In this document: positions 12,066 through 25,291 of the stretch, in pieces
How the letters are laid out: every line of letters begins with the position of its first letter
Numbering within the stretch: position 1 is the stretch's first letter
Virus record (IMG/VR): IMGVR_UViG_3300017989_000071
Coordinates: 53,645-117,644 of that record
Length of the DNA: 64,000 bases
Strand: one strand, 5' to 3'
Source: a virus
Notes under the pieces: generated by a model
The model's database searches: none
The model's input: only the letters and a program-made list of their open reading frames with translations
What the model was told of the DNA's origin: nothing
Translations under genes and position numbers: made by a program

Positions 12066-12094
12066 ATGATAATATCTTTCGAGTACGTTGTCAA
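12066..12094 (-). promoter_or_regulatory. Early sigma70-type promoter with conserved CGTACTCGAA spacer
   Basis: TTGACA-ACGTACTCGAAAGATAT-TATCAT. Confidence 0.85.
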
Positions 12095-15142: not shown

Positions 15143-15253
15143 CTATTTACCAGCCAAGAACCGCAGAACCCACAACGCTCCCTTGTAGAGAACATGCAGG
15201 GTCAGGCCGATCACCAGACTGCAAATCACGATTCCGGTCGTACTCATTTCCAT
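15143..15253 (-). CDS. 36-aa single-pass membrane peptide (below the ORF-track cutoff)
   Basis: GAGGAG RBS, MEMSTTGIVICSLVIGLTLHVLYKGALWVLRFLAGK*; fills the gap between the DHH gene and 15110. Confidence 0.6.
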   Translation of the reverse strand: MEMSTTGIVICSLVIGLTLHVLYKGALWVLRFLAGK

Positions 15254-15286
15254 GTGGATTCTCCTCTTCCTTCGATTGACCCGCCG

Positions 15287-16168
15287 CTAGGCTCCCACGC
15301 CCGGCAGGTTGAGAGGTTGAGGGAGACGGAAGCCAGCCGCATGACGGTGACCCCCGCCCCCATAACCTTTGGCGACCTCGGACACGTCCATGCCCCGGTC
15401 GTTACTCCTGAGTGAATACAGGTAGTCCCCCTCGCGTGTCTGAAACCAGACAACCGCAAAGGGGCGATCCTCGGCCAACCTGTTACCGACCTCCGACATG
15501 TGGATCGAAGCGCAGCAGGTGGGCACAACCGCAGTCCCCGCCCTTCCATTCCCGCGCAAAGGGAACTCGACATCCCTTGCGTTTTCGACTGCTTGATCGA
15601 CGATCTTGTTCCGGTATCGCAGAAGAAGTTTCCCGCGCTCGATCAGGTCTTCGAGGCCGTTGTTCATCATGTTCGTGGACAACTCCTCCCAGACTCCAAG
15701 CTCACGCTCGGTCACCCAGATCAGCGCGTTTACCGCCTCGCTGTCGGGCATCTCCCACCTCCAGAGATCGCGATCCTCGACGTAATCGACGATATAGGGC
15801 CGTGGCGTATCGGGATTGAAGTAATCCCACGCCAGCCCGCAGCCGGATCGGTTCATGTCGAACGTACAGAAGGGCAAACCCTCACAATTCGCCCTCGCCG
15901 TCTTGTGGTGATCGAAGACCAGAAGCCCGGCGGCTTCCTCCTGCATCCGAAGCAGACTCTCGCGGGGATAGCTGAAGTCGAAGATCAGGACAAACTTCCC
16001 GGCCAGATTTTGCGGCGGCCCCTCGCCGTACTTCGCGAAGATCACTTCGTAGGGGATTCCGGTTTCTCGCAGATGCCGATGTGCGACCCACGCCGCCGTG
16101 AACCCGTCAGCGCAATTCGCGTGAGAGATCACCAGCACCTCCCTTGCGTTGTCCGGCAGCTGAAACAT
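15287..16168 (-). CDS. DHH/DHHA1 phosphoesterase (NrnA/NrnB-like)
   Basis: SHANCADG, FDFSY, FDHHKT, DRDLW, GGGGHRHAAGF; AAGGAG RBS before ATG 16168. Confidence 0.88.
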   Translation of the reverse strand: MFQLPDNAREVLVISHANCADGFTAAWVAHRHLRETGIPYEVIFAKYGEGPPQNLAGKFVLIFDFSYPRESLLRMQEEAAGLLVFDHHKTARANCEGLPFCTFDMNRSGCGLAWDYFNPDTPRPYIVDYVEDRDLWRWEMPDSEAVNALIWVTERELGVWEELSTNMMNNGLEDLIERGKLLLRYRNKIVDQAVENARDVEFPLRGNGRAGTAVVPTCCASIHMSEVGNRLAEDRPFAVVWFQTREGDYLYSLRSNDRGMDVSEVAKGYGGGGHRHAAGFRLPQPLNLPGVGA

Positions 16169-16169
16169 G

Positions 16170-16494
16170 TAGATCACACTCCTTTCGTTTAATAGGGGTC
16201 CGTTCACGGTTCTCTCAGCCCCACGGACCAACAAGGCTATCGCCTCCGTGTAGGCGAAACTCAGATCGTTTTAATGCGGGCCTCTCACCCGCTCAGTCAT
16301 CTTGGCCTGTTCGCTGGTGGTTGTCCTTTCGGATCGGTATCCCAGCAGGGGGCAATACCCGGCGGTGACTCGCCATCAGTAGGATTGGCTACCCACCCAT
16401 CCTTATCGTTATGCGGGCCTTCCACCCGCCCGTGCCGTGACTACCGGCCTTTGGCGGCCCCACTGTTAGGGGGCATGAATCGCTGACGCCTTAC
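16170..16494 (-). ncRNA. Putative ~320-nt structured RNA / leader upstream of the DHH gene
   Basis: Lies downstream of its own promoter and has no substantial ORF. It carries many hairpins, including two related T-loop hairpins (16429-16413 and 16292-16276) and a GAAA tetraloop (16333-16324). Confidence 0.55.
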
Positions 16495-16499
16495 GTAAT

Positions 16500-16528
16500 A
16501 GCATACATACACCGTAGTACCTTGTCAA
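16500..16528 (-). promoter_or_regulatory. Sigma70-type promoter upstream of the structured RNA
   Basis: TTGACA (16528-16523), 17 bp, TATGCT (16505-16500). Confidence 0.65.
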
Positions 16529-16788
16529 CCCTGCCGCCCGTGCCGCTTCAGCAAGGCAGTCGCCCGCGCCACGAAGCACTCGTTCCTCGGCTGGCAATTA
16601 TGGGTCTGACAACACCCGTGGTGATCGTGGTGGTCGCACGGACCCTGCACCCGAACGACATCTTCGAGGATGTCCAGAGCGAGATTCAGCTCTCGGGTCG
16701 CATCCATCGCTCGACGATTCTCGGGGTGGACACAGGATTCCATGATCGCCCGCTCCTCCTTCTCTTCCCATATTGGCAGCTGCTTCAT
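16525..16788 (-). CDS. Hypothetical Cys/His-rich protein
   Basis: ATG 16788 overlaps the upstream TGA; CDHHDHHGCCQTHNC motif. Confidence 0.65.
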   Translation of the reverse strand: MKQLPIWEEKEERAIMESCVHPENRRAMDATRELNLALDILEDVVRVQGPCDHHDHHGCCQTHNCQPRNECFVARATALLKRHGRQG

Positions 16789-17420
16789 TTGGCACCCCGC
16801 TTCCACCACCGCTTCGGTAAGGGCGGATCGCTCGGCAGCGACTGGAGGGAAACCACGGACAGGCTGTGGAACACCGCGTCCTCCACCGCAACGACCTCCT
16901 GATACGGTTTCCGGAAAATCCGCTCGGTGAACCACCGCTTGATCCTGATCCACCGGCTATCGACCCGCTCGCTCTGCCGCATCCCGCAGGACAGGGACAG
17001 GGCGAACTTCGAGGAGGACTGCGAGATCGTCACCGGCTCTCCGTTGACCTCCTCGACCGTCGGCGGCTTCACGCTGTTCCACAGGGCGTCGCCGCCCGGC
17101 GTGCGCTCCACGTCGATCACCGCCTCGATACCCTTCTCCGTCACCACCAGCTCGGAGACCATCCCCGCCTTCGGCCACGGCTTCTCCCGCTGGCGGAACT
17201 CGACCCAGAGCTTTCCCTCCTCGATCTTCTCGGTCAGGCTGGGTTCGGAGACCATCTTTTCCATCGCCTCGGGCGTCAACCCACCGTTCACCGCTGGGAA
17301 AGCCAGATGTCCCAACGGCATGATGCAGGAAGTCAGCAAACGGCGACCGTCCTCGCTAGCGTCCACCCGGAACACCTTCCCCGCCGTCGGATCACGTCTC
17401 AGTGTTTTCGGGAACTTCAT
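16785..17420 (-). CDS. Hypothetical phage protein
   Basis: GGAGAAGAGG RBS before ATG 17420; coupled stop/start downstream. Confidence 0.65.
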   Translation of the reverse strand: MKFPKTLRRDPTAGKVFRVDASEDGRRLLTSCIMPLGHLAFPAVNGGLTPEAMEKMVSEPSLTEKIEEGKLWVEFRQREKPWPKAGMVSELVVTEKGIEAVIDVERTPGGDALWNSVKPPTVEEVNGEPVTISQSSSKFALSLSCGMRQSERVDSRWIRIKRWFTERIFRKPYQEVVAVEDAVFHSLSVVSLQSLPSDPPLPKRWWKRGAK

Positions 17421-17430
17421 CCTCTTCTCC

Positions 17431-17787
17431 TTACTTGTTGAACCAAACCACATGTGTCCATTCTCCCTTCGTCAACCACAGATCAGACGGGGCGAAGTGT
17501 ACCGAAGACATCTCGCTCTCCGTAGCATACCTCCCACAGCCGTCATCGTCCGTAAAGGCTCCAAACTCGACCGCCTGCTCAAACTCCTCAATGGTCATGT
17601 GAACACCGCAGTCTGGCAACGGCTCCATCAACAAATCGACACGAAACATCTCCGGATAGCGCACACGCATAACAGCCTCACGTAGAGCGTACTCACCGAC
17701 AAACTCTTCGACTCGACGTTCATACTTCCCGATAAAGCTGCCAGTCAGAATCGACCGCGCTCCTTGACTCAATTCACCGTCTTTCAT
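17431..17787 (-). CDS. Hypothetical phage protein
   Basis: GGAGGA RBS before ATG 17787. Confidence 0.65.
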   Translation of the reverse strand: MKDGELSQGARSILTGSFIGKYERRVEEFVGEYALREAVMRVRYPEMFRVDLLMEPLPDCGVHMTIEEFEQAVEFGAFTDDDGCGRYATESEMSSVHFAPSDLWLTKGEWTHVVWFNK

Positions 17788-17841
17788 TGTATCCTCCACT
17801 CACTGCAAGATTCCTATCCCGTTCTGGCACGGTTCATGCTT

Positions 17842-17999
17842 CGCGTGTGTGCGCGTACACGTGCGCGTAGTTATATTCCTACGTCTCATTCTCTGCGGTC
17901 CCCGACCGCCCGACCGACCCGACGAAGGAGGGAGGGCGGGAGGGGGTGGAGCGATAGCGGAACAGAGAGAGGGAAACTTGTTTCCCGCCCGCCCGCCCC
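17842..17999. other. Origin-like non-coding element (alternating purine/pyrimidine tract, CCGAC repeats, opposed G-quadruplex motifs, inverted repeat)
   Basis: The sequence features are directly visible in the intergenic gap next to the UvsW-like helicase; the origin function is inferred. Confidence 0.4.
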
Positions 18000-18027
18000 G
18001 GCACGCTAGCACGCGATTTCGAGATTG

Positions 18028-19599
18028 TCAATTCTCCCGTCTCCACCTCTTGCTGACCTCTATTGGAACATTCATCGAGACACCCGTTACAGGTTCCACT
18101 TTCAGTTGCGCATCGCGATAGGTCTTCAACCGCTTCAACGACTGAGAGCGGAGAACCCAATGCGTATTGTCTACGAAGTCGATAACGATGCAACGGTTAC
18201 CAATCGAACTGCCTTCCTTCAGTCTCATCCCACGTCCGAGTCGCTGGAGGAGCTGGCGAGGGTGTTTTCCTCCCGCCGCATAGACAATCACATTGATGCC
18301 GGAGATGTCAACACCTTCATCGAGGAAGGGGGTGGCGATGGAGATCGAATTTTCGTTTATATGATTAACTAATTTTTCGAGCTCCCATTTTTCCTTGTGG
18401 ATCGTTCCGTAGGAATTGACCAACACCTCCTTTGCCCCCTTGCACATGATCGCATCCTCGTACCCCTCGTCGATGAAGTGCTGGAGGAGCCGCCGACCGT
18501 GACGTTCGTGCTGGACGAAGATCACGACCGAGCAACCTTTGTCGTAGAAATTCTTCGCGGCGGATACGATAGCGAGGTTGCGGAGATGGTTCGAGCGGAC
18601 CCCCTGCTCGTAGAGGATATGCCAGTCGCGGATTCCGGCAGCGAGCTTCAACGGCACCTCGCCGGGGAGGGGAAGGTTGATCGCATCGATCTGGTAGGGG
18701 CGGATCACCGGCTCGGCGAGGATACCCCGCTGGATCAAAACCCACGAGGGCATCCGGTAGATGATCGGCCCGGTCATTCCCATGACCTGTAGCTCCTCCA
18801 CGGTCGGGTTGTCCATATCGGCAAAGGGGGTGGCGGATAGTCCAAATCGGTATCCGGCGGGGCACAGCAGGCCCGCCTCACCCCACCCCGGAGCTTTCAG
18901 GTGGTGGGCCTCGTCCCAAATCACCCCGTTCTGGCGGCTCAGGAGGGCCGTGACAGCCTTCGAGCCTCGTTTGAGGCCCACGGTAAGGGTTCGGTCGATT
19001 GCGACCGTCACAGGGCGATCTGACTGCTTCAGACCCCCTCCGTAGCCCCCAATCTCCTCCTCGGAGAACCCCCGATCCCGGAATCGACCGAGGGTTTGAT
19101 GGAGCAGTCGGTCGGTATTGACCACAAGGAGGACGTTGAAGGTCGGATATTGGATGAGATACCAGCGGACCATCGCAATCGCGATCTCCGTCTTCCCGGC
19201 CCCGGTTCCGGCCTGAATAATCCCTCGGCCCCGAGCGAGGGCCGTCTTGATCGCCCGGACCTGATAATCCCGCAGCGTCACCCCGGCGAGCTCCGGAACC
19301 TCGATCTGCCGGTAGTCGTTCGTCGGATCGTAATCCGGATGGTCCGGGTGCGGAGTCATTCGGACCTCGATCTTCTTCTCCTTCAGCAGCCGCTTCATCC
19401 GGGGGACCAGCCCCGACTGAAACCGTCCCTCGTCGTCGATCACGCAGACCTCGACCTTCTCCGGCTGCTTACCTCGCTCCTTCTGGACGAAGACGATGCC
19501 GGTGAATGCCTTCTCGGCCTGTTTGATCCCGCGCTGGGTGCCCCCCGTGATCCGGGAGAGCACCGGGCCGTACTCGACCTCGATCCAATCAATTCGCAT
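18028..19599 (-). CDS. Superfamily 2 DNA helicase (UvsW-like)
   Basis: LRDYQ, AGTGAGKT, WDEAHH, GLSATP, FLDEGVDI, QRLGRGMR. Confidence 0.9.
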   Translation of the reverse strand: MRIDWIEVEYGPVLSRITGGTQRGIKQAEKAFTGIVFVQKERGKQPEKVEVCVIDDEGRFQSGLVPRMKRLLKEKKIEVRMTPHPDHPDYDPTNDYRQIEVPELAGVTLRDYQVRAIKTALARGRGIIQAGTGAGKTEIAIAMVRWYLIQYPTFNVLLVVNTDRLLHQTLGRFRDRGFSEEEIGGYGGGLKQSDRPVTVAIDRTLTVGLKRGSKAVTALLSRQNGVIWDEAHHLKAPGWGEAGLLCPAGYRFGLSATPFADMDNPTVEELQVMGMTGPIIYRMPSWVLIQRGILAEPVIRPYQIDAINLPLPGEVPLKLAAGIRDWHILYEQGVRSNHLRNLAIVSAAKNFYDKGCSVVIFVQHERHGRRLLQHFIDEGYEDAIMCKGAKEVLVNSYGTIHKEKWELEKLVNHINENSISIATPFLDEGVDISGINVIVYAAGGKHPRQLLQRLGRGMRLKEGSSIGNRCIVIDFVDNTHWVLRSQSLKRLKTYRDAQLKVEPVTGVSMNVPIEVSKRWRREN

Positions 19600-22478: not shown

Positions 22479-22507
22479 ATTATAATATCATTCGAGTACG
22501 TTGTCAA
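22479..22507 (-). promoter_or_regulatory. Early sigma70-type promoter with conserved spacer
   Basis: TTGACA-ACGTACTCGAATGATAT-TATAAT. Confidence 0.9.
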
Positions 22508-23759: not shown

Positions 23760-23788
23760 ATTATAATATCATTCGAGTACGTTGTCAA
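23760..23788 (-). promoter_or_regulatory. Early sigma70-type promoter with conserved spacer
   Basis: TTGACA-ACGTACTCGAATGATAT-TATAAT. Confidence 0.9.
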
Positions 23789-25262: not shown

Positions 25263-25291
25263 ATGATAATACCTTTCGAGTACGATGTCAA
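25263..25291 (-). promoter_or_regulatory. Early sigma70-type promoter with conserved spacer
   Basis: TTGACA-TCGTACTCGAAAGGTAT-TATCAT. Confidence 0.88.

Follow-up and report, generated by a model that had tools for sequence, protein, structure and literature searches.

Does the long ORF-free stretch in front of a DHH phosphoesterase gene of an uncultured phage encode one large regulatory RNA, as a preliminary description of the sequence had proposed, or does it harbor something else? The stretch is located in a window of 64 kb, by which we mean the whole DNA analyzed here; the window is part of a 117.6-kb IMG/VR record and has all of its long ORFs on the minus strand. The gap itself measures 356 nt (16169-16524, minus strand). 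It extends from the stop codon of an upstream ORF of 142 aa without family assignment (16525..16953, minus) to the ATG at 16168 of the DHH/DHHA1 phosphoesterase gene (15287..16168, minus), which encodes a protein of 293 aa starting with MFQLPDNA. This protein matches the Pfam families DHHA1 (E = 2.8e-7) and DHH (E = 7.9e-4), as well as PHROG 4771 (DHH phosphoesterase, E = 2.3e-75). Its gene is preceded by a Shine-Dalgarno sequence in the layout AAGGAG-N10-ATG (AAGGAG at 16184-16179, ATG at 16168-16166, minus). A replication module surrounds the gap, with a DnaB-like helicase gene at 14877-13498 and a ResIII/DEAD helicase gene at 19599-18028.

The promoter TTGACA/17/TATGCT and the ORF-free stretch behind it, on which the preliminary description was built, are both real. 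The promoter, of an early sigma-70 type, is found at 16500..16528 (minus), and its -35 box TTGACA contains the TGA stop codon of the upstream ORF. Scanning the window with the pattern TTGACA-N16-18-TANNNT identified 12 such sites, all on the gene strand, compared to 0.28 expected by chance. Transcription would start near position 16493, leaving an ORF-free leader of approximately 325 nt (16169..16493, minus), about 10 times the usual length: the leaders of the other family members comprise 1-45 nt, with the exception of leaders of approximately 94 and 197 nt and a unit of approximately 83 nt. No terminator-like site was found inside the gap, and transcription should therefore continue into the DHH gene. 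The small ORFs of the gap, on either strand, lack a PHROG match; a 42-codon GTG frame (16425-16297) was rejected as a gene, as it begins within the first of the two hairpins described below, has no ribosome site and reads like proline-rich filler. Contigs in four public DNA runs from three studies are identical to the window over positions 15200-17500, without natural variation, and no RNA run was listed among those with the sequence.

The promoter family as a whole is of a strong sigma-70 type (TTGACA-N17-TATNAT) and is distributed over window positions 10120-54718 on the minus strand, for example at 12066-12094, 22479-22507, 23760-23788 and 25263-25291. Many members have the extended spacer word CGTACTCGAA in common, and most sites are located 1-45 nt 5′ of a start codon with a ribosome site of the GAACGAGGAG type. 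A second long ORF-free leader, of approximately 200 nt, is located at 17786-17996 (minus) behind the promoter at 18003-18031. Within it, a GGGGCGGGCGGGCGGG tract faces a C-rich one (CCACCCCCUCCCGCCCUCCCUCC), and there is a GC-alternating palindrome near 17842-17869.

The RNA of the gap had been described as highly structured, which our folding analysis does not bear out. The 333-nt transcript folds no better than dinucleotide shuffles (MFE z-score -0.55; 29 of 100 shuffles fold equally well), and the same applies to the three segments between the twin hairpins (z = -0.54, -0.37, and -0.93). The various other stems that had been listed (GCCCC/GGGGC, GGCC/GGCC, AGGAU/AUCCU and others) are present, but at a level expected by chance at 58% G+C; likewise, the words of a suggested AGUCA/UGACU switch are there, but amount to 5 nt of complementarity. 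The label "unclassified" holds, as an Rfam scan of the 64-kb window returned no family at the gathering threshold and at permissive thresholds, regions of 651 nt and 181 nt yielded chance-level matches only (13 bits or less). ARAGORN predicted no tRNA or tmRNA in the window or in the 117.6-kb record, and RF00005 gave no match in the gap at E ≤ 10; in the absence of a cloverleaf by either method, a tRNA or tRNA-like gene was rejected. Wider similarity of the gap to LSU rRNA was not found. Of the structural observations made earlier, the gap, the promoter and the twin hairpins stand, whereas dense structure beyond chance does not.

The proposed link to the DHH enzyme was examined at homologous loci. 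The DHH protein has thousands of relatives, the nearest being 51% identical among 5.8 billion proteins. At 12 of 12 IMG/VR phage loci with DHH genes of 31-46% identity, the upstream ORF stops within a few bases of the DHH start, so that none has a comparable leader, and neither blastn (word size 7) nor nhmmer detected nucleotide similarity between the gap and the regions 5′ of the DHH homologues at these 12 loci. A DHH-specific cis-regulatory leader was rejected on these grounds. Nothing in the stretch suggests a single large riboswitch for the DHH gene: the homologues are leaderless, there is no excess stability, and the hairpin occurs free-standing elsewhere. Thus, the earlier interpretation retains a promoter-driven, ORF-free RNA with T-loop-type units and without an Rfam family, and loses the single fold tied to the DHH enzyme. 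The riboswitch reading would have prompted a hunt for a ligand; the evidence points elsewhere.

The two near-identical hairpins that had been noted at 16429-16413 and 16292-16276 are real. Copy 1 (16411..16433, minus) reads ACGG-GCGGG-UGGAAGG-CCCGC-AU, with its stem at 16429-16425 / 16417-16413, and copy 2 (16274..16296, minus) reads CUGA-GCGGG-UGAGAGG-CCCGC-AU, with its stem at 16292-16288 / 16280-16276. The 19-nt word GCGGGTGRRAGGCCCGCAT matches the window at these two sites (0.13 expected) and has no further copy in the 117.6-kb record. The copies are 137 nt apart from start to start, with 118 nt between them. The word AACGAU follows both (16405..16410 after copy 1 and 16265-16270 after copy 2, minus), indicating a local duplication of the module together with its 3′ flank; this flank is absent in other phages, except for a family of three contigs (L161, L181, and L182) that was selected by the AACGAU pattern. 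The 5′ flanks of the window copies, ACGG and CUGA, differ from the consensus CCGA found elsewhere, and their tails (AUAACGAUA and AUUAAAACG) contain no U tract or U-rich stretch. Both hairpins keep perfect stems and loops. An intrinsic (Rho-independent) terminator was rejected for the window copies, as no U tract follows either hairpin, and transcription should read through them.

Searches of IMG/VR found the GCGGGTGRRAGGCCCGCAT word in 18 contigs, most copies being preceded by CCGA or CGA even though the pattern demanded neither. The module comprises 23 nt and forms a 5-bp stem that ends in a G-C closing pair beneath the 7-nt loop U-G-N-R-A-R-G; its consensus is (C/G)CGA-G NNN G-U GNRA R G-C NNN C-AU, followed by U-rich sequence. 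A stem scan of IMG/VR, in which the flanks and the loop frame were prescribed and any bases were allowed at the three inner stem pairs, gave 59 distinct sites. Full pairing was observed at 39 of the 59, in 11 stem types that include CGG/CCG, UGG/CCA, CAG/CUG, GGG/CCC, CCA/UGG, CCG/CGG, and GCG/CGC, compared to about 5% of sites by chance (binomial P ~1e-35); shuffling the partners gave 11 paired sites on average and 19 at most. The number of 39 allows for G.U pairs, which occur in two stems, and 37 sites are paired with Watson-Crick pairs only. Pairing is kept through changes on both sides of the stem, and these sites show that the module is a conserved structured RNA hairpin.

The converse loop scan kept stem and flanks constant and allowed any loop; most of the loops it returned occurred once, and one recurrent set corresponded to antisense tRNA T-loops. 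The sole other recurrent loops were UGGAAGG, UGAAAGG, UGAGAGG, UGCGAGG, UGCGAAG, UGGGAAG, and UGCAAGG, all of the form U-G-N-R-A-R-G. Some of the invariance seen at the outer and closing pairs, in the loop frame and in the flanks is imposed, because the search patterns prescribed these parts. The tails of the modules contain 3.8 T per 9 nt, compared to 2.0 expected, and 23 of 50 tails have at least five U; the T at position +2 (the U of the AU flank) was forced by the search patterns in most instances, but T is also enriched at positions +3 to +7, which the patterns did not force. The CCGA flank paired with the sequence 5′ of it no better than in shuffles, and mutual information between the variable loop positions and the flanks was weak and confounded by subfamilies. 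Apart from near-identical contigs, no sequence common to different phages was found around the hairpin beyond approximately 25 nt, and no conserved partner was found near the module.

The fully specified module has six matches in 596 Gb of bacterial and archaeal genomes. Four of them are inside coding frames; the other two belong to a phage-like contig and to a Neisseria prophage that IMG/VR contains as well. The module is phage-restricted and almost absent from bacterial genomes outside prophage-like DNA. Cultured carriers are the Pectobacterium phages Ymer, Abuela, Koroua and Sabo and the Lactobacillus phage LfeSau, so that the hosts cover at least two phyla. Genomes contain one to three copies; mostly the module is single and located in spacers of 60-100 nt between co-oriented genes. 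Many copies have a stop codon 2-30 nt upstream and a ribosome site downstream. A Shine-Dalgarno sequence, start codon and ORF within 90 nt downstream were observed for 18 of 50 copies in the sense orientation and for 4 of 50 in the antisense control; a test of the intergenic location by stop-free frames was too noisy in G+C-rich DNA. The neighboring genes are unrelated, with Erf, minor tail, MazG and primase genes downstream and major head and tail spike genes upstream. Judged by these sequence comparisons, the module is generic and phage-wide rather than tied to DHH, and it is the sole element of the gap with evidence of selection.

Several copies are associated with genes for stable RNAs, and the tRNA-linked ones stand 2-12 nt 5′ of tRNA genes in phage tRNA arrays. 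Three copies each are found in two related phages (147-150 kb), 4-7 nt before the genes for tRNA-Ile(UAU), tRNA-Ala(CGC), and tRNA-Ala(UGC). These copies reside in an array of approximately 30 tRNA genes, in which one copy forms the entire 23-nt spacer between two tRNA-Ala genes, and the RNA between copies is ordinary tRNA. The array is found in the uncultured phages L170 (G001:C1:30500-35500) and L137. Some of its tRNAs are apparently without an encoded CCA, and after one tRNA-Ala, A-CGA leads into the hairpin. Extra "fourth" copies in large phages (L167-L169) are in coding sequence, have other flanks and were taken as chance occurrences. In phage Ymer, the order is a sigma-70 promoter, approximately 25 nt, the hairpin, 12 nt and tRNA-Met. 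The hairpin abuts tRNA-Leu in one contig (L186), is located between tRNAs and a MazG gene in another (L044), and in a third (L027) is found approximately 150 nt downstream of a phage tmRNA gene. The latter gene was predicted by ARAGORN at L027:10626-11004 (minus), in a 179-kb phage, with the tag ADNVVELFPKVEAAPVAKAA. In phage LfeSau the hairpin is followed by U7 and then by the ribosome site of the primase gene, and here it does have the features of a terminator.

In a family of AT-rich contigs, the hairpin closes a conserved, apparently structured RNA (L199:10113-10342, L187:389-618, L188:1737-1966, and L192:6340-6569, minus). This element is non-coding, comprises approximately 150-200 nt with blocks such as AAUGCACC, CCCAAGGGUGAGCAG, and CUGAGUGCAGAGGGA, and ends with GGAGG-N8-GCUC followed by the T-loop hairpin; it has no Rfam match. 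A long-range helix within it varies on both sides between contigs (GUUGUAAU/AUUACAAC vs. AAUGUAAU/AUUACAUU). One of these AT-rich phage contigs also carries a hatchet ribozyme (RF02678, 81.6 bits, L199:8591-8727). No cultured relatives were found of this family or of the tRNA-array phages. Another arrangement is seen in L182:1-505 (also in L181 and L161), a non-coding region of approximately 450 nt in which a terminator-like hairpin is followed by two T-loop-type hairpins, GCGGG-UGCAAGG-CCCGC and GCUGG-UGCGAGA-CCAGC, approximately 200 nt apart. The second loop differs between L181 and L182 (GCAA to GCGA). The genes downstream in L182 encode two ParB-like nucleases, a Cas4-domain exonuclease and a helicase.

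The preliminary description had assigned the twin hairpins to the T-loop motif. T-loops are characterized by U1, A5, a purine at position 4 and one to three bulged bases, stacked on a Watson-Crick closing pair (PMC2615604), and the loops UGGAAGG and UGAGAGG show this signature. The sequences are just as compatible with a bulged loop, in which a GNRA tetraloop is closed by U.G or U-A and one G bulges out. U1 is never replaced, which would favor the T-loop reading, a fold in which U1 and A5 form a reverse-Hoogsteen pair and a gap takes up an intercalating base. The T arm of tRNA is built alike: its stem has 5 bp and a G-C closing pair, and its 7-nt loop has U1 and A5, but loop positions 2-3 are U-C in tRNA and G-N in the module. 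Domain III of the 23S rRNA encoded by a Neisseria gene (L176) contains the hairpin GCGGG-UGAAAAG-CCCGC, one loop base off the phage consensus, with the flanks AAA and UC instead of CCGA and AU. By an estimated numbering offset, this hairpin corresponds to the U1388 T-loop of Haloarcula marismortui 23S rRNA listed in PMC2615604. The model of RF02003 (group-II-D1D4-4) starts with nearly the same hairpin (cAGcgGGUGaAAGUCCcgc), but the match to the gap scores 9.5 bits against a gathering threshold of 49, 112 model positions between the matched ends are absent, and the window region has no intron or reverse transcriptase. Taken together, the tRNA T-arm architecture, the 23S hairpin and the RF02003 hairpin make the T-loop reading reasonable at the level of sequence. 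Unlike the T-loop hairpins of large RNAs, the module stands alone in mRNA spacers, and no docking partner was found.

Other systems resemble the module in part. Phages are known to use intercistronic hairpins such as the C(UUCG)G hairpins of T4, the RNase III sites of T7 and the PeSL cassettes of T4-type phages. These stabilizers are, like the module, short, located between co-oriented phage genes and conserved in the loop with a free stem, and both are presumed to set or protect RNA ends. The module differs in its 7-nt T-loop-type loop, compared to the UUCG tetraloop of T4, in a stem that is far too short for RNase III, in being common to phages of different bacterial phyla and in its link to tRNA genes. 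The boxB hairpin of the lambda nut site carries a loop of 5 nt, is accompanied by boxA and depends on the N protein of lambdoid phages. It shares with the module a 5-bp stem, a GNRA-like purine loop, a position in promoter-proximal, early untranslated RNA and the occurrence of two copies per phage. The loop here has 7 nt, however, neither boxA nor an N protein was seen here, and both window copies are in one transcript; a lambda nut site (boxA and boxB) was rejected in view of the loop length and of CCGA as the sole conserved upstream word. The guanidine-II (mini-ykkC) riboswitch consists of two small hairpins that act together, with ACGR loops at a spacing of 7-40 nt. The window leader likewise has two near-identical small hairpins with a conserved loop, but it differs from the riboswitch in having loops other than ACGR, hairpins set 118 nt apart and no Rfam match; in other phages, one copy of the module is the rule.

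We consider it an even chance that the gap is an unusually long untranslated leader of an early transcript, in which a boundary or end-protecting RNA element, the module, is present twice. The early transcript would run through the leader of approximately 325 nt into the DHH gene. The compact hairpin may be found at RNA ends that arise where transcription terminates in the U-rich tail or where an endonuclease cuts, candidates for the latter being RNase P at an adjoining tRNA and an RNase E-type enzyme in the AU tail. The hairpin could thereby insulate neighboring RNAs from one another. By analogy with the copies at stable-RNA junctions (the tRNA arrays and the AT-rich family), the module probably marks or protects RNA ends. 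The window copies would split the leader into segments of approximately 64, 118, and 105 nt, and cutting may yield one or two small RNAs and a DHH message with a defined, protected end. The conserved CCGA flank and the invariant loop exceed what a passive stabilizer needs, and suggest a specific partner. According to PMC2615604, a T-loop always makes long-range contacts or binds a ligand, and is not very stable on its own, which fits a docking or ligand role better than plain end protection. A phage-wide T-loop module with a specific partner, the two copies cooperating here in an early RNA of approximately 320 nt, nevertheless seems rather unlikely to us. If true, the partner would be a reader of T-loops or the tRNA elbow (RNase P, the ribosome, or tRNA) or a small ligand that intercalates in the loop, and phages would use the module, positioned next to early genes, tRNAs and small RNAs, to direct processing or expression.

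Other explanations of the gap were weighed against the end-protecting element. The loop and flanks are invariant and the stem variable, as in lambda N-boxB and in the operator hairpins of coat proteins, and copies are found in promoter-proximal untranslated RNA (the window and Ymer), in tRNA arrays and just 5′ of ribosome sites. The hairpin might accordingly be the site of a specific protein, such as a translational repressor, a nuclease for RNA processing or, in a boxB-like system, a factor that prevents termination on untranslated, Rho-sensitive transcripts. As the carriers are diverse (phages of Pectobacterium and Lactobacillus, a Neisseria prophage, marine and sediment phages) and have no obvious common neighborhood, the factor would have to be universal or very widespread among phages; there is also no boxA-like companion, and we regard a protein site as unlikely. 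One integrated tertiary fold of approximately 320 nt, controlling the DHH gene through two T-loop hairpins docked onto each other or onto the RNA between them, is harder to reconcile with the lack of excess folding stability and of an Rfam family, with a module that is mostly single in spacers of 60-100 nt, with the leaderless DHH homologues and with the ordinary tRNA between copies in the multi-copy large phages; moreover, the rest of the gap resembles nothing around other copies. It gains from the exceptional length of this ORF-free leader behind its own promoter and from extra relaxed copies near canonical ones, above a background of 0.04 per kb. Since the unrelated L161/L181/L182 family also has two hairpins approximately 200 nt apart at the head of an operon, and T-loops normally need a tertiary partner or ligand (PMC2615604), such a fold is kept at a low probability.

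The element could also act as DNA, either as a strand-specific origin hairpin or in recombination, as a hot spot or cassette boundary by which tRNA and accessory genes pass from phage to phage. The gap is located between helicase genes, the L182 and LfeSau copies are in replication or recombination modules, the paralogous tRNA-Ala genes each have a hairpin as if duplicated as a unit, and the sequence contexts of the module are otherwise unrelated. This is improbable, given that the motif is always co-oriented with transcription, that G.U pairs in two stems fit RNA and that the loop signature is an RNA tertiary motif found in 23S rRNA as well. The gap has no iterons, AT-rich stretch or skew change, which speaks against a replication origin there. 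A mostly decayed or neutral spacer, the remnant of a lost gene or small-RNA cluster with two functionless copies of the module, would account for the missing stability signal, homologues and ORF support, and for the non-consensus 5′ flanks and absent U-rich tails of both copies. It is equally improbable, as phage genomes are compact, the gap follows a member of the phage's own promoter family, its sequence is identical in four runs from three studies, and both hairpins retain perfect stems and loops.

Rfam 15 contains no family for the module, and no description of T-loop/GNRA intergenic hairpins in phages, or of hairpins 5′ of phage tRNAs, was found within the literature searched. The module is unusual for its T-loop signature, its restriction to phages across host phyla and its link to tRNA genes. 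It represents a compact RNA module with a covarying stem that is common to phages of many uncultured lineages as well as those of Proteobacteria and Firmicutes, is hardly ever seen in bacterial chromosomes and is repeatedly found directly 5′ of phage tRNA genes. Phages depend on host enzymes to process and protect their tRNA arrays and untranslated early RNAs, and a portable signal for processing or protection would be useful for studies of phage gene expression and as an insulating part for synthetic biology. The cultured carriers Ymer (Pectobacterium) and LfeSau (Lactobacillus) make the module directly testable.

A minor resemblance concerns the sequence next to the hairpins. The word AACGAUAA follows hairpin 1 (window 16405-16412), and the related word AGCGAUAA precedes the look-alike 23S hairpin (L176:1517-1526), the E. 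coli version of which we take to be AACGAUAA. This resemblance between the window and 23S rRNA was taken as coincidence.
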